DNA of 64,000 bases. It comes from Octopus vulgaris (Eukaryota). This document shows, piece by piece, positions 5,760-55,739 of the stretch. Position numbers and translations under genes: made by a program. The stretch covers positions 12,834,001 through 12,898,000 of the forward strand of contig OX597834.1 in NCBI GenBank assembly GCA_951406725.2. Reading direction: 5' to 3'. The first letter of the stretch is position 1, and each line of letters starts with the position of its first letter. The notes under the pieces were generated by a model, which searched no databases, had not been told where the DNA came from, and worked only from the letters and a program-made list of their open reading frames with translations.

Positions 5760-7080
5760 GTAAGTAATCATAGAAGATACTTGATAGGATTAGGAGTGTC
5801 TGTTGCCACTGAAGAAGATTGACGCTATAAGTGTGTGTCAGAAAGCAAAGGAAAAATATGAAAGGCCAAAGTAAAACGAAAGGTCAGCAAATGTTAAGAC
5901 AGCGATAGAAGATATTCGCTAAACCTGGAAAGAAAACGCAACAAAAAATACATGAATGCAATTTTCTTTTGGGATAAGATATAGAGAAATTCTCAGAAAT
6001 GGTGTTATTTTAAGAAAGATTATTTGATGAAAGACATAGATGGCATTATGATGGCAGTTCAAAAATAGGTGAGACGCGCGCGCGAGATGTTACAGGGATA
6101 GTGAAGATATATCTGTTTCTTTATTGCCCACAAGGGCCTAAACATAGAGTGGACAAACAAGGACAGACAAACGGATTAAGTCGATTACATCGACCCCAGT
6201 GCGTAACTGGTACTTAATTTATCGACCCCGAAAGGATGAAAGGCAAAGTCGACCTCGGCGGAATTTGAACTCAGAACGCAACGACAGACGCAATACCTAT
6301 TTCTTTATTACCCACAAGGGGCTAAACACAGAGAGGACAAACAAGGGCAGACAAACGGATTAATTCGATTACATCGACCCCAGTGCGTAACTGGTACTTA
6401 ATTTATCGCCCCCGAAAGGATGAAAGGCAAAGTCGACCTCGGCGGAATTTGAACTCAGAACGCAACGACAGACGCAATACCGCTAAGCATTTCGCCCGGT
6501 GTGCTAACGTTTCTGCCAGCTCGCCGCCTTAATAGTGAAGATATATCGTTGCTCTGTCGATTATAAACTGATACATAAGATACTGTAGCGGATTTACAAA
6601 TCAGATAGCAAAAACATGGAAGAAATAATGAAAACCCTGGAGTCACGACGGTGTTATGTGCATTAATCACTGGCTGATAATGGAAAAATATGGAATGTGT
6701 AAAATCTTAAAAGGTGAGATGGAATGGATAAAGACCAAAGAAATTTATCAGAGAAATTATGAGAGAAAACTTTTGTAGTGACGTGATAATCCTGATACGC
6801 AAGGAGCTAAACGCTTGCGATCAGATTTCATTATGGAATCGCAAGAGACTGGAATGTGGTTGATAAGAGCTTTATTAAAGCTTGCTTAATCGCCCTCATG
6901 ATCAAGAGCATGCAATTAGATAATTGATAATTATTAGCGTTTTAATTGCGAGTTAATAGGCTTTGGGATTACAGGAAGTGAGAGACATTCCTATCAAAAC
7001 AGGGACGCTGTATTCAATGTCTGAATGCTTCGTCTTATTCTGTAGCAATGTTGTTAACAGGAAGACTTCTTAGAGTCTTT
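5760..7080 (+). pseudogene. Heavily decayed non-LTR retrotransposon ORF 3' region, R4/Dong-like, interrupted by a SINE-B dimer
   Basis: Broken frames give LMKDIDGIMMAVQK (cf. L.KETEG.IMAAQ), LCRL, HDGVMCINHWLI..KYG (cf. RHD.V...IHW.L...YG) and IPIKTGTL (cf. IPI..G.LG). Many stops and frameshifts. Confidence 0.5.
6114..6530 (-). mobile_element. SINE family B, head-to-tail dimer with a 16-bp TSD
   Basis: Head AAGGCGGCGAGCTGGCAGAAACGTTAGC, B-box GAGTTCAAATTCC; second monomer restarts at GTATTGCGTCTG. Flanking direct repeat ATAGTGAAGATATATC at 6098-6113 and 6532-6547. Confidence 0.9.
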
Positions 7081-7660
7081 TCGTTTGCGCTCAGTTTGAA
7101 AAGAAGTGTTAAGTCGTGAAATTAATCAGATGAATGAGTCTTTATCTTTCATTATCCTCTCTGTTCCATCATATGCTGGAACATTATATGCACTGTGAGA
7201 ACATTAGTAACTTTAACAATAGAAACAAAACACCGACAGGTAAAGCAAGACAAGGTATAATGTTGAAATGGATGTCTCGAAGACTGTAATGAACAGGTAA
7301 AACAGAAACTGGGGCGAGTTTACTGATTAAAAGTAAACGATTCATATTTGTAAAAAGATCAATTGGAAGAATATCTTTACTGTAAGCAAAATTGGGTTAA
7401 GTAGTATTCTTACAAGGTAATACATTTTAGAAAATGGATTAACTTAAATTACACAAGGACGATAGTCTAGAAACTTTATCGGCGATAATCATACTGAACT
7501 GAACTTCTTCCACTACAATTCGTGCAGATTTGGAGAATGTTGATCAGTTAAAATTCGGCACTATGATGGTTAAAGAAGCAGAGTTAAGTCGGTGGAATTT
7601 TTGAAGAAATAATAAAGATGTTAAAGAAATAATGGCATTATAAAGAAATAATAAATAATA

Positions 7661-8088
7661 GGCGCAGGAGTGGCTGTGTGGTAAGTAGCTTGCTAACAAA
7701 CCACATGGTTCCGGGTTCAGTCCCACTGCGTGACATCTTGGGCAAGTGTCTTCTGCTATAGTCCCAGGCCGACCAATGCCTTGTGAGTGGATTTGGTAGA
7801 CGGAAACTGAAAGAAGCCTGTCGTATATATGTATATATATGTATGTATGTGTGTATGCATTTGTATGTCTGTGTTTGTCTCCCTAGCATTGCTTGACAGC
7901 CGATGCTGGTGTGTTTATGTCCCCGTCACTTAGCGGTTCGGCAAAAGAGACCGATAGAATAAGTACTGGGCTTACAAAGAATAAGTCCTGGGGTCGATAT
8001 GCTCGACTAAAGGCGGTGCTCCAGCATGGCCACAGTCAAATGACTGAAACAAGTAAAAGAGAAAGAGAAAGAGAAATAGAGAAAGAGA
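7661..8088 (+). mobile_element. SINE-A, full length
   Basis: tRNA-like head at 7661, internal microsatellite, tail GGCGGTGCTCCAGCATGGCCACAGTCAAATGACTGAAACAAGTAAAAGA followed by (GAAAGA)n. Confidence 0.93.
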
Positions 8089-9965: not shown

Positions 9966-10005
<40 letters not shown>

Positions 10006-10064
10006 CAAAATCAGAAATATTAAATTTCTAAATATCTCATAGAGAAACGTGCGGTGGTGGAGCG

Positions 10065-10390
10065 ATAGAGTGGTTGTATACTGTCAACTTAACGTGACAG
10101 TCCCGTAAGGGAATTACACTACCGCTGTTTAGCCCTAGGAAGCATCGACGCTTCCTGTCGGCCTTGACACATTTCCTGTGTCCTTATACATTTAGGAAGG
10201 GGAGAAACATGCATGTCCCTAGATGCAGGCTTAGCTGTTGGGGTGTTTGTCTCCCCTTCGTAAATATATAAGGACACAGGAAATGTCTTAAGGCCGACAG
10301 GAAGCGTCGATGCTTCCTAGGGCTAAATAGCGGTCGTGTAATTCCCTTACGGGACTGTCACGTTAAGTTGACAGTATACAACCACTCTAT
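10065..10390. mobile_element. Fold-back element 1: about 145-bp inverted arms with a loop of about 35 nt
   Basis: ATAGAGTGGTTGTATACTGTCAAC...GGGGAGAAAC (10065-10208) is the near-perfect reverse complement of 10245-10390. Confidence 0.9.
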
Positions 10391-10705: not shown

Positions 10706-12286
10706 AATAATATGCCGCAAATGTTAGAGTCCATAAAATAAGACAAAGGTAGAAATGAAAGAGGGCACAAAGAACAATGCTATAAATTGTGATGCTTACA
10801 CTTCAAAGTCAAACATATCCGCACACACAAACGACTTTTGAAATAGCACGAATTATTGAAAATGAAGAGAGAAAATACTAAGAGATGCATCGCAATCACA
10901 CACAAATATTTATCCAGAATACACCAGTTACTATGAGAAAACCAGGATGAAAGGAAACGAAAACCACCTATTGCATATACTAAAATGATAAGCCGCAACT
11001 AAACAATAAAATGTAGCGCTTGTGAAGCCACGAGGCAGGCAATATGGAAATGAAAACATAAGGGAAAAAAAAAAACGCAAGAGTAAGTTATACACGTATC
11101 ACAAAATAATCCTTAAACGACCATAAAAGTAAAATAATAAAAAAATAACGAAAGGAAATGAAATGAAAGGACTTTCCACACATGAAACTCAAAATAGTGG
11201 AATGTAGAAAATGAAGAGAAAAAGAGTAGGAATTCTGATGTTGGCAATGGTGACAATGTTGTCGGTAATGAAAACAAACAGGGTGATATCTAGTGACGAA
11301 AAATGCATAGTGTGAATATACCGTTAATATAAAATATTGATTCAGTTGAAGTTCAGCTAACGACCAAAAAGATCTATTAGTAACATTAAAGAAATCGCAC
11401 GTGACTGTGACAAAATCAGTGAGAATGTATCTGCGGATATACCTGACCAAAGAATTGAAACAAAACCATCTCTAATCAGCAATGGTTAAATGAAAATCGG
11501 TCCTGTTGGATGTGATTTCCACAAAAGGAAACAGCAATATCATCCCATTAAGAAGCTGAAGACGAAAGCGGTTCTGATATTATCAGAGTCAGCTTCTCAT
11601 AATCGGCGAGAAACTGTAGGAAATAAGATATGATTTGCATATTAAAAGCACAATAGAAAATAACATATCCTTACTTTGTAAAATGCAGATAGGTTTGTGT
11701 ATGAACCGAAAATGCAATCAGAGAACAAACACAAAACAAAGAGGAAGGGACATGGAAATAATATACAACATAAATTAGAGACGTATACCGAAACAAAAAA
11801 GAAAATAAGAAACAGGGAAAGAGCTCATCTTATGGAAATGAAGCTGAATAAGATTGCTTCGTATAGCGGAAAAAGCTTTTATATAGCAATAAATTATTTT
11901 AAGGAAATAGTGAACAATTCTAGATATATCGAATTACACTATCAATATGAATTGGACTATTTTGGGAGATATATATATACAACAAAGGCACTAAGCACAA
12001 TCAAAGCGTATAATGGATTATTAAGGCAAGGATTAAAGACGATTGCAATACGCCAAAGAACCAGGTGTTGCATAAACAAAGCAAAATACACGACGTTGGC
12101 AAATAAAAGATGAAACTGGAAAAGCATTTGGTGTTTGCTCTTACTAAGAAATATAGCAAGTGCGCGTGCTTGTGTAGTGTCAACATTCGCTGTGTTGTGA
12201 AACAGAACAGCGTCAAGATTTCACCGGTTATTTGAATGATATAGCTTTCGCAGATAAGAAACTAACTGAAATGAGAATCGTTAGTG

Positions 12287-12571
12287 GCAGATCAGGCCGA
12301 AAATGTCGCTAGAAGCTAGGATTACCAAGCATAGATTGGCATATTTCGGTCATATTATGCGGAGAAAATCCCTGGAGCAGGACATCAAGCTCGGAATGGT
12401 CAGGGGCAAGAGAGGAAGAGGACGACCAAGAACCCGGTGGCTTGACACCATCAAGAGTGATACCGGAATGGACATAGCCAATCTGAAAGAAGCGGCCCAG
12501 GATAGAACTGACTGGAGGACACTCATCCAACGAGTAACCGAGAGTCGACTTCGACTGAGCGGATATATATG

Positions 12572-12623
<52 letters not shown>

Positions 12624-12903
12624 TTCTTAAGCAGATCAGGCCGAAAATGTCGCTAGAAGCTAGGATTACCAAGCATAGATTGGCCTATTTTGGTAATATT
12701 ATGTGGAGAAAATCCCTGGAGAAGGACATCATGCTCGGAATGGTCAGTGGCAAGAGAGGAAGAGACCGACCAAGAACCCGCTGGCTTGACACCATCAAGA
12801 GTGATACCGGAATGGACATAGCCAATCTGAAAGAAGCGGCCCAGGATAGAACTGACTGGAGGACACTGATCCAACGAGTGACCGAGAGTCGACTTCGACT
12901 GAG

Positions 12904-12947
<44 letters not shown>

Positions 12948-13226
12948 CTTAATCAGATAAGGCCGAAAATGTCGCTAGAAGCTAGGATTACCAAGCATAG
13001 ATTGGCATATTTCGGTCATATTATGCGGAGAAAATCCCTGGAGAAGGATATCATGCTCGGAATGGTCAGTGGCAAGAGAGGAAGAGACCGACCAAGAACC
13101 CGGTGGCTTGACACCATCAAGAGTGATACCGGAATGGACATAGCCAATCTGAAAGAAGCGGCCCAGGACAGATCTGTCTGGAGGACACTGATCCAACGAG
13201 TGACCGAGAGTCGACTTCGAGTGAGA

Positions 13227-13268
<42 letters not shown>

Positions 13269-13558
13269 TCTTAAGCAGATAAGGCCGAAAATGTCGCTAG
13301 AAGCTAGGATTACCAAGCATAGATTGGCATATTTCGGTCATATTATGCGGAGAAAATCCCTGGAGAAGGATATCATGCTCGGAATGGTCAGTGGCAAGAG
13401 AGGAAGAGGCCGACCACGAACCTGCTGGCTTGACACCATCAAGCGTGATACCAGAATGGACATAGCCAATCTGAAAGAAGCGGCCAGGATAGAACTGACT
13501 GGAGGACACAGATCCATCGAGTAACCGAGAGTCGACTTCGACTGAGCGAATAGATAGA
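12287..13558 (+). mobile_element. Four tandem 3'-terminal fragments of an RTE-clade LINE
   Basis: Each unit of about 320 bp encodes RLAYFGHIMRR..KRGRGRPRTRWLD..AAQDR.DWR, the typical RTE ORF C-terminus. Units start at about 12287, 12623, 12945 and 13267; TAGTGGCA flanks the whole array. Confidence 0.92.
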
Positions 13559-13659
13559 TAGTGGCATTTCATTGTTGGAATTATCACTGAAATACTTTAA
13601 ATATTTTAAAGATGAGGTGGTTCACCTAGAAAGTAATAACAATTGAGCATTTCAGCAGA

Positions 13660-18735: not shown

Positions 18736-19184
18736 TAGTTCATGTTATTGGAGAAGCACATAAATACACAAATGCTTATAAATGGAAATCTATGTTACTG
18801 AACTGTATACAATGTCGTTTATTGTTTATATTCTTCTTTGTTTTTAATTGGACTGAGGCCATGCTGGGGCACTGTGTTGAAGAATCTGAACCGAGTTAAC
18901 CGTTCCCCGCACTTATATAACGTTTGACGAATCTCTTTCGTTTACTATCAGCATCTTCTGCCGAACGACTAAGTTGCTCATTCTAAACACTCAAACGCCG
19001 ATTGTCAACCGGTCTTTACTGGATTCTATTACATGATGCATATTATTATTATTACGGGCAAACATCTCTGTGAACTTTAGAAAATTTCTTTAATATTTTG
19101 TTTACTCCTTGAAATAATTATTATTTCTTTCTTGTATTTCTTTTTTCCATTATTTTGTCAGCACTCACAAATGATGATCCGTTA

Positions 19185-19601
19185 TACTCCTTACCCTTAT
19201 ACTTGTTTCAATCATTTGACTGTGGCCATGCTGGAGCACCGCCTTTAATCGAGCAACTCGACCCTGGGACTTATACTTTGTAAGCCCAGTACTTATTCTA
19301 TCGGTTCTCTTTTGCCGAACCGCTAAGTGACGGGGACGTAAACACACCAGCATTAGTTGTCAAGCAATGCTAGGGGGGGGGACAAACAAAGGCACACAAA
19401 TATACACACGAATATATATATATATATACATATATATACGACGGGGTTCTTTCAGTTTCCGTCTACCAAATCCACTCACAAGGCATTGGTCGGCCCGAGG
19501 CTATAGCAGAAAACACTTGCCCAAGATGCCACGCAGTGGGACTGAACACGGAACCATGTGATTGATAAGCAAGCTACTTACCACATAGCCACTCCTGCGC
19601 C
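19185..19601 (-). mobile_element. SINE-A, full length
   Basis: Complete head, microsatellite and tail. Confidence 0.93.
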
Positions 19602-19834
19602 CATATTTATTAGTTTTGTACTTTAGCCTTTGATTGTTTAAATTAATATTCCCCAACAAACAATAAATTCCAATTTGTGCAGGTTACATCTCATGCCTAC
19701 TACCAAATTCCAGAGAATTTTCCAAGTATTCTAGACGTTTCGACTTTGACGGTGAACGTGTAATTTCTTTGGCACTATTAGAAAGGGCAGTCATTCTTCA
19801 TACATGTATTATGCATGTACATATGTATGTCTAC

Positions 19835-21124: not shown

Positions 21125-21450
21125 AGATATATAAAAATATAGGGTAAAGTAGTACCTATATAAGACTCCATTCAGACCTTTTTCTACGATTGTGTCAAAA
21201 GATATTGCAACACTTTGTTAATATATAATTCATTCAGAAATTGCAAAGGCAATGTCCTTTTCTTCAGGGCAAAGTTTACAAGTTTCAGATTTCTGGCTGC
21301 CAAATGATGAAGAAAGATCATTGCTACAATTTATTTCTCCTTTCGTCTTGGAGTAACCTGAGCACTTCCATCTCCAGTCCTGTTTTTATGCTTTGTTTTA
21401 ACGACATTAAAAGCATTATCCTGATACACACACACACACACACACACACA

Positions 21451-21847
21451 TACTCTTTACTCGTTTCAGTCATTTGACTGCGGCCATGTTGGAGCACCGC
21501 CTTTAATCGAGCAACTCGACCCCGGGACTTATTCTTTTGTAAGTCCAGTACTTATTCTATCGGCCTCTTTTGCCGAACCGCTAAGTAACGGGGACATAAA
21601 CACACCAGCATCGGCTGTCAAGCAATGCTAGGGGGACAAACACAGACACACAAACACACACATGCATATATATATACATATATACGACGGTCTTCTTTCA
21701 GTTTCCGTCTACCAAATCCACTCACAAGGCTTTGGTCGGCCCGAGGCTATAGTAGAAGACACTTGCCCAAGGTGCCACGCAGTGGGACTGAAACCAGAAC
21801 CATGTGGTTGGTAAACAAGCTACTTACCACACAGCCACTCCTGCGCC
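21451..21847 (-). mobile_element. SINE-A, full length
   Basis: Complete head, microsatellite and tail. Confidence 0.93.
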
Positions 21848-21901
<54 letters not shown>

Positions 21902-28444: not shown

Positions 28445-28725
28445 TTTCTTTTTTACTGTGTGCACATAGACCGAAATTCTGGGGGAGGGGGCCAGTCGAT
28501 TAGATCGACCGCAGTACGCAACCGGTATGCAATTTATCGACCCCAAAATGATGAAAGGCAAAGTCGACCTCGGCGAAATTTGAACTCAGAACGTAGCGGC
28601 AAACGAAATACCTATTTCTTTACTACCCACAAGGGGCTAAACACAGAGGGGACAAACAAGGACAGACAAACGGATTAAGTCGATTAGATCGACCCCAGTG
28701 CGTAACTGGTACTTAATTTATCGAC
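28445..28725 (-). mobile_element. 5'-truncated SINE-B dimer with a different terminal tail
   Basis: Same junction AAAGAAATAG|GTATTTCG at about 28611 as the other dimers; the distal monomer ends in the tail type seen at 30890-30935. Confidence 0.85.
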
Positions 28726-28882
28726 GAAGAAAAAGAAGGGATACTGGACAACACGTCGGGAAAAACTAATACTTCTCACTATGTATATTTATATAACGCC
28801 ATGATCTTGATGGACATATTTGGCGGAATATAGGATGGAATGAATAATAACAGTGTAAATTATATAAATATAATTTTATATT

Positions 28883-29642
28883 TAAAGTATAATAGCCATC
28901 TCAATATAGCTAACAACAAAGGGTGGGTGTTACTGTAGCTTTTAGCCCCAGGAATTCATCGTCTCCGGCTGGCTTTAGGCACACTATCTGCGCTCTTATG
29001 GTATTTGCAAAGGGAGGTCATCCCTTTCTCGTAAGCCTACGTGATACGCACGGACTTCAGTTTCGAGGTAGTTGCTTCTTGTCAACGGGCGGTAATCACC
29101 GGTTTACGATGAAAAGGAAGACCTTGTATGCAAATACTTATGTGTTATTCTAGTAATTTTGCAAATACGATAAGGGCACAGATAGTGTGCCTAAAGCCAG
29201 CTGGAGACGATGATCTCCTGGGGCTAAAAGCTACAGTAACACCCACCCTTTTTGGTTAGCCATATTGAAATGGCTATTATACTTTACATTGTCGAGCGGT
29301 TACTGTTTACATCTCGTTCAGAGATTTATTATTGCTTGCAGACAGTTTTTCGAAATCAGTGACGGAAGTTACTAGAAAAACACTTAAGTATTTACATACA
29401 AGGTCTTCCTTTACATCGTAAACCGGTGATTACCGCCCGTTGACAAGAAGCAACAACCTCGAAACTGCGGTACGTGCGTATCACTTAGGCTTACGAGAAA
29501 GGAATGACCTCCCTTTGCAAATACCATAAGGGCACAGATAGTGTGCCTAAAGCCAGCCGGAGACGATGATCTCCTGGGGCTAAAAGCTACAGTAACACCC
29601 ACCCTTTGTGGTTAGCCGTATTGAGATGGCTATTATACTTTA
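28883..29642. mobile_element. Fold-back element 2: about 270-bp inverted arms plus an internal partial third arm
   Basis: 28883-29156 is the reverse complement of 29369-29642; 29158-29286 is a further inverted copy of the outer 128 bp. AATTTTATATTTA flanks both sides. Confidence 0.9.
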
Positions 29643-30326
29643 CAATTTTATATTTATTATCCCTATCTTATTTGTAAATAATCTAATGAATATGTTGCTT
29701 GTCATTACTTTGTTTTACTGCCTGTCTAATATCATTATACTATTTGAATAAATTGCGTCAATCCCAGTTTCATTTGCAATATGTTGCCTGTGTGCAGGTG
29801 TCATGAGCATTTCTTCGTGACCATTAAGAACACTGGAAGATAATTCCTCTTCAAGTATGTTTTGGATTTTGAGTATACTTCCACAACAATTTTGACATAG
29901 ATATGAGTGACGAAACAGGTATGTATAAGACAGATCATTTATAATTCATTTCCTAAACATTATACTTAATTGGAACATTCGAGGTATTAAAATAGGAATT
30001 TCATTGTAAAATCTGTCACGTAGCAATCATTAACAAGGCTGTAGATAACAAAGAAGTCGTTAAATATCCGTATGCACATTGCTATAGATACGCAAATCTT
30101 ATGAAATTAACTATGTATATAAATACAACCAGAAGTACATTCTATTTATCATCCCATATACTTCAATATTTCATATGCTGCATAATTATAGGATACGAAG
30201 TTAATAGAATTAATAAGACATTCGGAGAAAAGCGTTATTAAAACATTCAGAGAAAAGCATTATTAAAACATTCAGAGAAAAGCATGGACACACACAAGCA
30301 CATAAGAATATATAGTTATTAAGATA

Positions 30327-30937: not shown

Positions 30938-31005
30938 ACATACACATAGCAGGTATATACACACATATATACATACATATGTTGATATATATATATATAT
31001 ATATA

Positions 31006-31374
31006 TACTCTTTTACTTGTTTCAGTCATTTGACTGCGGCCATGCTGGAGTACCGCCTTTAGTCGGGCAAATCGACCCTGGGACTTATTCTTTGTAACCC
31101 CAGTACTTATTCTATCGGTCCCTTTTGCCGAACCGCTAAGTGACGGGGACATAAACACACCAGCATCGGTTGTCAAGCAATGCTAGAGGGACAAACATAT
31201 ACATACACACATATATACGACAGGCTTCTTTCAGTTTCCGTCTACCAAATCCACTCACAAGGCATTGGTCGGCCCGGGGCTATAGCAGAAAACACCTGTC
31301 CAAGATGCCACGCAGTGGGACTGAAACCAGAACCATGTGGTTGGTAGGCAAGCTACTCACCACATAGCCACTCC

Positions 31375-31375
<1 letters not shown>
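31006..31375 (-). mobile_element. SINE-A
   Basis: Near full length, inside TA runs. Confidence 0.92.
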
Positions 31376-31433
<58 letters not shown>

Positions 31434-31712
31434 TCATGATTATGCATCTGCATCTGTATGTATGTATATACAAACTTTTAAAATTATGTGTATAATTATA
31501 ATGAGGTTTCAGCAAAAAATTTTCCCCACCACATACCGAAATTGAGAAATAGCAGTTAAAGCTAGGCATTTCTCAACAACCAACGAAATAAAAGAGAAAA
31601 GATAACGGATCCACCCGGCTTTGATTAATTGTAGACGCGTTTAGTAGTTAGATAGATGTGAAATGTAAACACCACATTTCCACTATCATTCTCACTCTTC
31701 AGTATACTTTTT

Positions 31713-37775: not shown

Positions 37776-37783
<8 letters not shown>

Positions 37784-38325
37784 TCAAAATAAAAACATGA
37801 TGCAAAGGATTTAGCGGTACATATGCTTCGGGCCTTTATTAGACGGTTTTATAACAATGCATAATGTGTGTCTATAGACTTTTTCAGCCGCGTACAATTA
37901 CTACTTGAAAAGACATGTATTACGTTTTAAGTTTTACGTTGGGGATGCAAATCCTCATAGTCGCGTACGACAGAGTGGGGCACCAACACAGAATCGAAGC
38001 GTCCATCCCGTTTTTCACTCGATTCTACATCGATGGACTTCGATTTTGTGTTGGTGCCCCACTCTGTCGTATGCGACTATGAGGATTTGCATCCCTAACG
38101 TAAAACTTTTAATGTTGTACATGTCCTTGAAGCAGTAATTGTACGCAGCTGAAGAAGTCTATAGACACACATTATGCATTGTTATAAAACCGTCTAATAA
38201 AGGCCCGAAACATATGTACCGCTAAATCCTTTGCATCATGTTTTTTATTTTGATTAATATACTCTATCACCTACACCACTAAATGGTATATACAGGTGCT
38301 TACAATTATCAAGTATTCACCCTGA

Positions 38326-42140: not shown

Positions 42141-43140
42141 TGATTGATTGATTGATTGATTGATTCTACTTTCAGCTTATGAGCTGTGGCCATGCTGGGG
42201 CACCGCCATTTGGTGTTGCTACTTGGTTTCACTTCATGGAGGCTTTCTAACAACTGCTATTTGGTGCATGAGAGAGTTCGATGCAGCTGCCCTCATCTGC
42301 CCCTCCTGCCGTGAAGTTGGTTCATCTGGGACACCTGACAGGAAGAGATCCAGCTTCATTTTAAAGACATCTGTATCCACCCCATGCAAGTCTCTCAGGT
42401 TCTTCGGGAGGATATTGAAGAGCTGTGGGCCTCGGAAGCCCAGGCTATCACAGAATCTTGTCCTACATCTTGATGGCAGGTCTGGAGTCCTAGGCACCAC
42501 GCAGTGGCGCCCAGTTCTGGCATTTGCGTAACTCTCGATGCCAAAGTTCAGGACACTTCCATCCAGGATCTTCCAGATGTATATTATGGCATATCTTTCC
42601 CGCCTACGCTCCAGGGAATATAATTTTAATCTCTTGAGTCTTTCCCAGTAGCTTACATTCTTCATAGAGGCTATCTTCTTTGTGTAGCTTCGTTGGATCG
42701 CCTCAAGTTCTGTGATCAACTTGACACTGGATGGTGACCATAGCTGAGAGCAATAGTCAAAGTGGCTTAGGACAAGTGTCTTCCAGAGGACCATCATGGT
42801 TTCTTGTTCTCTTGTTCTAAAGGTTCTAAGAATCCATCCAGCCAGCCGTCTACATTTCATTGTCAGTTTAGCAACATGTACATGAAAGGTCGCGTCATCA
42901 CTCATGTGAATACCCAGGTCACGCACTGATTGTGCCTCTGGGATTGCAATCCCTCCGGGTCCAGTGTATTCATTGGGTATTGCATTCAGTTTTGCATGCT
43001 GATAGTATAAAGCTTGAAACTTTCCAGCATTGAACTGCATGCTATTCTTTTCAGCCCACTTGTATATTTCGTCCAGCTCACATTGCAGGTGTTTTGTGTC
43101 CTCAGGGTTCTGTATTGCCTGTGAAACTTTTGTATCATCA
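42141..43140 (-). mobile_element. 5'-truncated CR1-like LINE; open RT C-terminal ORF of about 300 codons (42234-43140)
   Basis: DDTK (YADD motif)..LQ.ELD..YKWA..N.MQFN..K..RDLGI..DYCSQLWSP..LE.IQR..SYWERLK.LKLYSLERRR..FN.LP; short UTR and (AATC)n tail. Confidence 0.93.
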
Positions 43141-43175
43141 TATATGTATATATGTGTGTGTATATATATATATAC

Positions 43176-43215
<40 letters not shown>

Positions 43216-43310
43216 GTGTATATATATATACGTATATATATATAAATATACATGTATATCTATATATGTGTGTGTATATATGTGTGCGTGCATATATATG
43301 TGTGTATATA

Positions 43311-44608: not shown

Positions 44609-45001
44609 TGCTTTAGATTAAACATTTCTTCACATTGAAATATATTTTTCATTAACACTAGAAGAAACTGAATAACCTCAGGTAGGCTGAGGTTACTCAT
44701 GGAGAAAATTGTTCATATCTGAAAATTTTTACTAACTCCGTGAATCTCAGATAATGAGATTTTCAATAACTGTGTCATGTACAATACAGATTTGCATATA
44801 TGTGTATGTTCTCTTCCCCTTCTCTTCGTTGAGCCAGGAATATATGTATATCTTGGTGAAAGTATATTACAAAAAATTCTCTGCTAATTTCAACAGCAAA
44901 ATCTATATTAGCCTGATAGAGTGAAAATGTTGACAAACATACTAGGTGTGCTTTGTAGATGCAACAGCTACATATATATCGAGGTAGAATACAATATCTT
45001 T

Positions 45002-45420
45002 AAGGCGGCGAGCTGGCAGAAACGTTAGCACGCAGGGCGAAATGCGTAGCCGTATCTCGTCTGCCGTTACGTTCTGAGTTCAAATTCCGCCGAGGTCGAC
45101 TTTGCGTTTCATCCTTTCGAGGTTGATCAATTAAGTACCAGTTACGAATTGGGGTCGATGTAATCGACTTAATCCGTTTGTCTGTCCTTGTTTGTCCCCT
45201 CTGTGTTTAGCCCCTTGTGGGTAATAATTAAATAGGTATATCGTCTGCCATTACGTTCTGAGTTCAAATTCCGCCGAGGTCGACTTTGCCTTTCATCCTT
45301 TCGGGGTCGATAAATTAAGTATCTGGTGCTCACTGGGGTAGATATAATCGACTTAAACCGTTTGTCTGTCCTTGTTTGTCCCCTCTATGTTTAGCCCCTT
45401 GTGGGCAATAAAGAAATAAG
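45002..45420 (+). mobile_element. SINE-B dimer
   Basis: Head at 45002, junction AAATAG|GTATATCGTCTG at about 45236, second tail ends AATAAAGAAATAAG. Confidence 0.9.
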
Positions 45421-45839
45421 TATTCGATATCCTTTCTACAATACCACCCGATATTACCATGTTGAGGTCATAATCATCACCACAGCAGACCTGTAAGAGA
45501 TTTTCAATTAATTTTCTCATAATATAATGCAAATTAGACAATTTTCAATCTGTAAGCATTTTTCACATGAAATGCTTATAAATAAGGTTTATAAATAAAG
45601 TTTATCTACATTATATGTTTGATATATTCTGGACAGCTATGCTATTTATATTTATAAACTATTATATTAAATAATCTACCAAATAGTTATTTGCCATAAA
45701 ATGAGGGCGCCGCTTATTTCACGTAAGAATATGAAACTCAAAATCTAATTTCTGAATTAATTGTTAAATATACTAGGGAGAAATTAGAAAGGTTTGGTGT
45801 CGAATAACGCCCCCACTGCTAAATCTCACGTAAATGGTT

Positions 45840-55440: not shown

Positions 55441-55739
55441 TAAGAGACAATGGTGTCATTGAGACCCAAAGGTGTCAGGTAATGCAGAATACGTGCTATA
55501 GACAGACCATAGTTAAGTTTCAGATTTGGTAATATTGCGAATAAAGGGCTCAACGTTGTTTCTATGTCAACGTGTGTATATATGAATTGTATGCATAATG
55601 AGATAAAGAAAAACCCAAGGATGTATAGATATTAGAGCATTTATAGATATCTATACAGCCTTGTCTTTTTATCCCATTACGCATAAAATTCATATATATA
55701 TACACATCTTGAATGATGCCTTTGTTACATTGTGGGGTT

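Follow-up and report, generated by a model that had tools for sequence, protein, structure and literature searches.

Two fold-backs in the window, by which we mean the whole 64,000-nucleotide stretch of Octopus vulgaris DNA analyzed here, are 5'-truncated inverted insertions of homologous tandem monomers of 335 to 360 nt. On their sequence features, these elements are non-LTR retrozymes, a class already established, to which they add a member. The best overall explanation is probably that of retrozyme insertions whose conserved multihairpin module serves as a fold for RT binding, of the type seen in Penelope-like elements (PLEs), with two start sites. Since elements of this class are already known, the result departs less from the familiar than would the new ribozyme that the preliminary description had offered as one option. 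It does, however, delineate a bounded cis element of about 190 nt with two mapped ends and five natural variants, in a genome with young intact PLE ORFs, so that an in vitro assay already available could address how animal retrozymes are copied; further, the insertion anatomy itself bears the PLE signature.

Anatomy of the two fold-backs

Both fold-backs are copies of a repeat of about 350 bases with thousands of copies in the genome. The first, FB1, extends from 10003 to 10390 and has a tail on its left arm only. This arm (10003-10205, reverse strand) is a 5'-truncated copy of family A with the module and the tail, and it extends 8 nt beyond the copy-end site that we term site 2. The right arm (10204-10390, forward strand) is likewise a 5'-truncated family A copy, which begins with half of a type I hammerhead motif (the 3' half) and ends at the other copy-end site, site 1, with no tail. 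The hammerhead 3' half (10204-10222, forward strand) sits at the center of the fold-back and comprises GAAAC, a palindromic stem III, the GUC triplet (10215-10217), and the 3' strand of stem I; the complete motif occurs in other family A copies (e.g., L008 and L011). The second fold-back, FB2, is a composite of an inverted family B arm (28883-29159, reverse strand) and a main copy of 1.37 tandem 356-nt family B monomers (29158-29643, forward strand), each with its outer end at site 1. It is flanked by a 12-bp target-site duplication (left copy, AT rich, 28872-28883; right copy, 29644-29655; both given on the forward strand). The inverted arm carries a hammerhead motif at about 29047-29091 (reverse strand), and the main copy carries a type I motif with a U3-A8 core at 29434-29478 (forward strand), which shows two private changes, A29449 in stem II and a GUA triplet. 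The preliminary description had drawn both fold-backs too short and had missed all three of these hammerhead motifs.

The two long arms of FB2 have two variants in common that are absent from 34 to 40 other copies of the family, and its tandem partial copy lacks one of these two. Read from the sequence, this suggests a linear multimer as the template, or later conversion between the arms, rather than a single circle.

Copy number, families, and the hammerhead motif

A search of the 2.8-Gb genome (227 contigs) with the two arms gave 2,576 and 2,690 first-look candidates, of which the best 40 were scored for each arm; a third family surfaced by chance in locus L022. A pattern of the module, from hairpin H4 to the GGGCUAAA block, had 4,945 exact genome matches, as against none for the reversed pattern. 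From the loci retrieved, a profile search recovered 112 distinct full-length copies, which form 40 clusters at 90% and at least five families, the five main ones (A to E) being 53 to 76% identical. The copies are arranged singly, in head-to-tail arrays with periods of 356 nt (family B), 360 nt (C), 353 to 359 nt (L114), and 354 nt (D), or as inverted pairs, and this combination of tandem and inverted layouts is unlike that of LTRs. The monomers are noncoding, as neither fold-back is covered by an ORF reaching 120 aa, and the GC content of the two fold-back families (0.44 and 0.48) is below 50%. At L049:1220-1324, a family B copy is fused to a module from yet another divergent family. A scan of metagenomes gave 97 pattern matches and no homologues (best E, 0.27).

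Of 235 copies, a set that includes 5'-truncated ones unable to carry the motif, 119 match a type I hammerhead descriptor in the sequence preceding the module, compared with 6 on the reverse strand and none in shuffled sequences. The spacing between hammerhead and module is mostly 30 to 33 nt, with examples from families A to E, and the cores are CUGAUGA, CCGAUGA, and UUGA(C/U)AA, the last of which is the U3-A8 covariation known from PLE hammerheads, according to the available part of PMC4209133. With Rfam 15, the window and single monomers gave only subthreshold hairpin matches, in which neither the hammerhead nor the module was recognized; the hammerhead call therefore rests on the descriptor and on published accounts, and the module is, as had been proposed, not a catalogued motif. 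Because every family has its own hammerhead motif upstream, the earlier suggestion that the module plays the role of a hammerhead is not supported.

Two fixed copy ends and their pairing in inverted insertions

On the hammerhead strand, the 3' ends of copies cluster at two fixed sites, 43 to 57 nt apart. In family B (n = 42), 28 ends lie 168 to 176 nt past the predicted cleavage site (site 1), 10 lie at 204 to 221 nt (site 2), and 4 are elsewhere; in family C (n = 21), 9 are at site 1 and 12 at site 2; and family A has two matching clusters about 56 nt apart, in a count that retains duplicates. As the loci were picked as best matches to an arm, they are biased toward copies that reach site 1, though not toward either pairing of ends. 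The 5' starts are scattered, with no cluster of 5' boundaries inside the module. Copy ends fall within AT-rich runs with microhomology at the junctions, and the flanks are 77 to 86% AT versus a background of 62%. Contigs from four public runs with four organism labels have loose ends at window position 29337, 29644, or both in all four runs, and the depth, taken from contigs only, drops in the 5' direction. The hammerhead, the fixed 3' ends, and this 5'-ward fall in depth make the functional strand assignable, as the one running toward the outer ends; it is opposite to the strand used in the preliminary description, which had held that the strand could not be told.

Among 80 loci (L001 to L080) there are 32 inverted insertions, spanning 247 to 1,133 bp, and 29 of these have both ends at one of the sites: 24 combine site 1 with site 2, 4 have site 1 at both ends, and 1 has site 2 at both ends. 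The excess of mixed pairs (24/29) has a P value of 2.2e-4 against random pairing; the family A reference ended at site 2, and some ends counted there may extend a few bases further, as in FB1. When 17 insertions with microsatellite-like flanks (FB2 among them) were set aside, 11 of the remaining 15 showed a duplication of 12 to 14 bp, compared with 4 of 210 mismatched flank pairs, and all 11 are of the site 1/site 2 type. The insertions in the window are atypical in this regard, FB2 being of the site 1/site 1 type and FB1 overshooting site 2.

Miniature inverted-repeat DNA transposons (MITEs) and foldback transposons are also short and noncoding, with inverted arms and a target duplication. 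The inverted arms and the near-constant duplication of 12 to 14 bp would fit a reading of the fold-backs as MITEs whose arms are terminal inverted repeats. We give this reading hardly any credence: 24 of the 29 insertions have unlike outer ends, at odds with identical terminal repeats; the spans are not uniform; the inner ends are scattered; and a large number of copies exist as lone arms or in head-to-tail arrays. The unequal outer ends, variable centers, tandem monomers, and ribozyme motif all set these elements apart from DNA transposons of that kind. Rather, two ends, a one-sided tail, and inverted truncated copies together make up the Penelope "tail" signature, and we consider it very probable that the retrozyme is copied by the PLE mechanism. 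The pairing of site 1 with site 2 together with the duplication of about 12 bp suggests a possible origin for PLE fold-backs and their one-sided tails. To this extent the preliminary description anticipated the result, in that three of its proposals find support: a conserved fold that terminates a mobile element integrating in inverted pairs, a connection to Penelope-like elements, and the option of an RT-recognition signal.

Fold, conservation, and covariation of the module

Read along the hammerhead strand, the module consists of one strand of a central helix, hairpins H4 and H3, and a helix P enclosing H2, H1, and site 1, followed by a tail hairpin and site 2. In FB1, where all of these lie on the reverse strand, H4 occupies 10166-10182; H3, a two-stem hairpin that ends in a conserved GGGCU block, 10131-10163; helix P, 10052-10124 (10117-10124 pairing with 10052-10059); H1, 10080-10101; and the tail, 10011-10064, between site 1 (10065) and site 2 (about 10011), with its hairpin at about 10033-10047. 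In FB2, on the forward strand, the module of the last monomer (29510-29643) contains the central-helix strand, H4 (29531-29547), H3 (29551-29581), the 5' strand of P (29590-29596), and H1 (29613-29632). The upstream monomer there has a complete helix P (29234-29305; 29234-29240 pairing with 29299-29305) around site 1 (about 29288) and a family B tail (29289-29337), with a hairpin at 29311-29325 and site 2 at about 29337.

H1, H3, and H4 correspond to hairpins 1, 3, and 4 of the preliminary description, which do recur in the same order in both fold-backs; H2, which it had placed alongside them, has differing sequences in families A, B, D, and E (by eye) and is absent from family C and some subfamilies of A. 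Its statement that most stem bases of hairpins 1, 3, and 4 differ was too strong: a count by eye gives differences at about 13 of the 42 paired bases in these three hairpins, and H4 and the lower stem of H3 are nearly invariant. The element that it listed as CTTAT..ATTT..AAGGG corresponds to a single strand of a long-range helix that is predicted for families A to D. The helix that covaries best, P, had escaped it; this helix straddles the end of the arm, and part of it falls beyond the interval that was reported. The FB1 and FB2 arms can be aligned by sequence alone, the representatives of families A and B being 58% identical. The shared order of hairpins hence reflects descent, and compensatory change alone counts as evidence for selection on the fold.

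We aligned 27 of the 40 cluster representatives together with L192, dropping 13 that were chimeric, deleted, or redundant, and tested covariation against a custom, tree-based null in the style of R-scape. In the unedited alignment, 1 of 15,576 column pairs is significant, and it lies in helix P (E = 0.02); RNAalifold recovers H4 and P unaided. After H3 and the tail hairpin had been registered by manual gap shifts, 4 of 34 proposed pairs have E values below 0.05; helix P contributes two of these, and upper H3 and the tail hairpin one each, with two or three independent joint changes per pair. None of the 34 pairs proposed on this hand-registered alignment is significant in H4, lower H3, or H1, so that the covariation predicted earlier is borne out for some of the helices only; H4, in particular, and lower H3 are conserved without it. 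For H4, P, and H1 in the unedited alignment, 73 double-change cells were counted versus 27.8 after shuffling, which ignores relatedness, and pairing stands at 89.8% versus 23 to 53% when the helices are slid. The covariation is real but thin. In addition, a model of the P-tail domain built from families A to D, from which family E was deliberately excluded as a held-out test, detects family E with E values of 8e-5 to 7e-4.

The conserved unpaired bases beside helices (AAGG, the CGAUG loop, and AAA past H3) and the lack of an Rfam match could point to a second, undescribed self-cleaving or ligating ribozyme. We consider this very improbable, given that a hammerhead motif is already present in every family, that no cluster of 5' boundaries lies inside the module, and that the unpaired segments differ in length and sequence among families. 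Comparison by eye with the cores of the pistol, twister, HDV, and hairpin ribozymes gave no match that holds across families. A TATA-like promoter reading of the AUAUAAGG stretch was also rejected, as it is not conserved in families B and C.

The predicted folds of single arms are more stable than those of dinucleotide-shuffled controls (z scores of -1.5 to -4.4). In the four segments scored, the antisense strand has the better values throughout (-3.7, -3.6, -2.3, and -4.4, against -3.2, -2.6, -2.1, and -1.5 for the sense strand), as would be expected if the fold were selected on the cDNA, i.e., on the antisense single strand, for second-strand synthesis or recognition by the GIY-YIG endonuclease; moreover, the available part of PMC11167929 cites earlier work in which tail DNA was needed for recognition by the Penelope endonuclease. 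Nevertheless, we regard selection on the cDNA as improbable. Non-Watson-Crick pairs fixed in subfamilies, if read on the hammerhead strand, include 14 G-U versus 5 A-C pairs (counts that are not independent), and in family A helix P is predicted in 11 of 15 sense strands versus 3 of 15 antisense strands. In single-copy folding, the probability of P on the sense strand exceeds 0.5 in only 11/15 sequences of family A, 13/45 of B and C, and 2/5 of D, giving 26/65 in total.

Autonomous Penelope-like elements

Autonomous PLEs are present in the genome, and three families of them, P1 to P3, were sampled by scoring the best 150 of 6,136 GIY-YIG candidates and 125 of 5,028 RT candidates. In P1 and P2, there are two 3' ends 55 to 60 nt apart, and the inverted copies are asymmetric in 4/4 cases for P1 and 1/1 for P2. 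P2 has a predicted 8-bp helix (probabilities of 0.69 to 1.0) that closes 7 nt past the first end, in a geometry like that of the retrozyme helix P. For P1, 7 bp of a P-like helix can be drawn by eye, with a probability of at most 0.04, and this candidate was rejected; in P3, no P-like helix was seen by eye. P1 and P2 also have a common CACACG block 7 to 9 nt past the first end (L235:1168-1360 and L242:5768-5957), which in P2 forms the predicted helix.

Neither sequence, profile, nor covariance-model searches detected the module in the sampled pLTRs of P1 to P3 and one P2-like copy. An attached parent ORF coding for an RT with a GIY-YIG domain, which the preliminary description had predicted, was likewise not found, the monomers being noncoding. 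An ORF between the inverted arms of L111 and L112 was considered as the parent gene and rejected, as it belongs to an ORF1-like insertion with its own duplication of 14 to 17 bp. The module match beside a PLE in L192 and the PLE fragments beside modules in L058, L165, and L168 are not taken as linked elements; (TA)n or other DNA lies between the neighbors, and we therefore read them as independent insertions. At L169:9061-9725, in one inverted arm, a family C end at site 1 is joined directly to the interior of the P1 RT ORF. One possibility is that this single junction records a template switch between two RNAs in one insertion, and it may serve as a lead.

A proposed role for the module

We judge it reasonably likely that the module acts mainly as a scaffold that binds a Penelope-type RT supplied in trans and positions its start sites. 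Multimeric transcripts would self-cleave and perhaps circularize; the protein of an autonomous PLE, probably as a dimer, would then bind the H4-H3-P domain and nick both target strands about 12 bp apart. Each nicked 3' end would serve as a primer, one at site 1 in the loop of P and the other beyond the tail hairpin, at site 2. Both cDNAs would extend toward the hammerhead, terminate at varying positions, and be joined midway, thereby giving a fold-back with a one-sided tail.

Alternatively, the module might keep a circular RNA compact, stable, or ligatable, or steer the folding of the hammerhead, with the RT simply starting where either of two single-stranded, AU-rich patches can pair with an AT-rich end of the target. 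This is rather unlikely in our estimation, though several observations are compatible with it: retrozyme circles are highly self-paired, according to the available text of PMC7229834; families A to D all have a predicted long central helix despite their different sequences; copies end in AT-rich runs with junction microhomology; and the sampled PLE pLTRs lack the module. Against it, P, the best-covarying helix, brackets site 1, with 5 to 11 nt between that site and its 3' strand in all five families, and the 8-bp helix predicted in P2 has a matching geometry at 7 nt. The scaffold role is the one that we prefer. Weighing against the retrozyme and scaffold explanation are the thin covariation, the better z scores of the antisense strand, the modest share of sense copies in which P is predicted, the lack of the module in the three PLE families sampled, the failure of Rfam to recognize either hammerhead or module, and the atypical ends of both insertions in the window.

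Comparison with known elements

Metazoan non-LTR retrozymes, in the available portions of their descriptions (PMC7229834; bioRxiv 10.64898/2026.07.22.740005), are noncoding tandem monomers of 150 to 450 bp with one type I hammerhead and a GC content below 50%; they have duplications of more than 4 bp and coexist with PLEs, and the monomers of mussel and axolotl measure 330 to 390 nt. The octopus elements resemble them in monomer size, hammerhead, GC content, duplication length, and the presence of PLEs in the genome. Unlike those retrozymes as there described, they have a covarying domain outside the hammerhead, putative fixed RT start sites, tails, and inverted insertions, and their cores include U3-A8 and CCGAUGA variants. 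In the same portions, the copying of animal retrozymes is stated to be open, and the link between retrozymes and PLEs consists of co-occurrence and pLTR similarity.

In PAc of Anolis, as described in the available part of PMC11167929, the tail is delimited by a pair of internal sites at which the RT starts, cleavage and extension take place on both strands, a dimer is predicted, and RNA downstream of the hammerhead is required; an inverted copy and a one-sided tail are features of PLE insertions in the part of PMC8557442 at hand. The elements described here are similar to those in having two internal 3' ends, a tail often at one end only, a hammerhead upstream, an inverted 5'-truncated copy, partial tandems, and AT-rich or (TA)n targets. 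They differ from PAc in having no ORF and a tail of 43 to 57 rather than 30 to 40 nt, and the PAc start sites, unlike those here, lie in an AC-rich stem-loop within the ORF. The pairing of site 1 with site 2 with a duplication of about 12 bp is seen here, and these portions of the PAc and PLE reports contain no mention of such a pairing. With the hammerheads of PLE pLTRs, as far as the available text of PMC4209133 describes them, the octopus motifs share type I topology, a short palindromic stem III, the U3-A8 variant, and pairs of motifs on opposite strands 100 to 700 bp apart; they are distinct in their canonical size (4-bp stem II and 5- to 6-bp stem I) and in belonging to noncoding monomers. 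A search of the literature, whose subscription papers and supplements may hold such accounts, returned none of the module domain, of cephalopod retrozymes, or of the site pairing.

An ORF1-only element inserted near the hammerhead

The ORF1-like insertions mentioned above represent an element of about 1.5 to 1.7 kb with one ORF of about 450 aa and a weak CCHC knuckle, and without an RT. There are 13,345 first-look candidates for it in the genome. Both ends could be resolved at 20 of 30 loci, in 12 of which a hammerhead core lies 25 to 40 nt downstream, a share that is inflated because the query was taken from such a locus. The insertions mostly have duplications of 14 to 17 bp and are found in retrozymes of families A, B, and E (L111:1970-3680, L112:1680-3330, and L131 to L160). 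Copies in family A and B hosts are 95 to 97% identical to each other, while the modules of those hosts are 58% identical, and thus the insertions are independent and position specific, without an obvious common target sequence. The element also occurs in tandem arrays with units of about 1.8 to 2.0 kb (L161, L163, and L165), some with a full retrozyme monomer in each unit. A word-index protein search with the ORF1-like protein gave no matches, and a full HMMER scan gave 411 relatives, none of them named; the nearest atlas clusters are of the CCHC and ZCCHC3 types. The element resembles target-specific Tx1 or half-L1 elements.

A more speculative scheme, which we put forward tentatively and consider doubtful when taken as a whole, is that the H4-H3-P scaffold offers two start sites to the two active sites of a dimeric Penelope RT, a single RNA thereby priming both strands, nicked 12 bp apart; that P, with its predicted counterpart in autonomous family P2, might act as an initiation signal, so far undescribed, used generally by this class of telomerase-related RTs; and that the ORF1-only element might be a LINE derivative specialized on a fixed position in the retrozyme, regardless of sequence, and traveling with it as a 2-kb composite.

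Other repeats in the window

The repeat landscape of the window is rich in (TA)n and appears octopus-like. Fold-back 3 (37776-38261) lacks the module, and the one hammerhead-like motif in it, at 38194, is minimal and degenerate; it is a different PLE-type end. A further short fold-back at 55577-55698 is 77% self-complementary. C-terminal fragments of LINE RTs lie at 42234-43259 (reverse strand) and 12285-13560, the latter repeated in tandem. Two abundant dispersed SINE-like families are also represented, the first at 1-313, 7639-8065, 19183-19612, 21450-21880, 31005-31436, and other positions, and the second at 6103-6532, 28447-28725, and 45000-45424.
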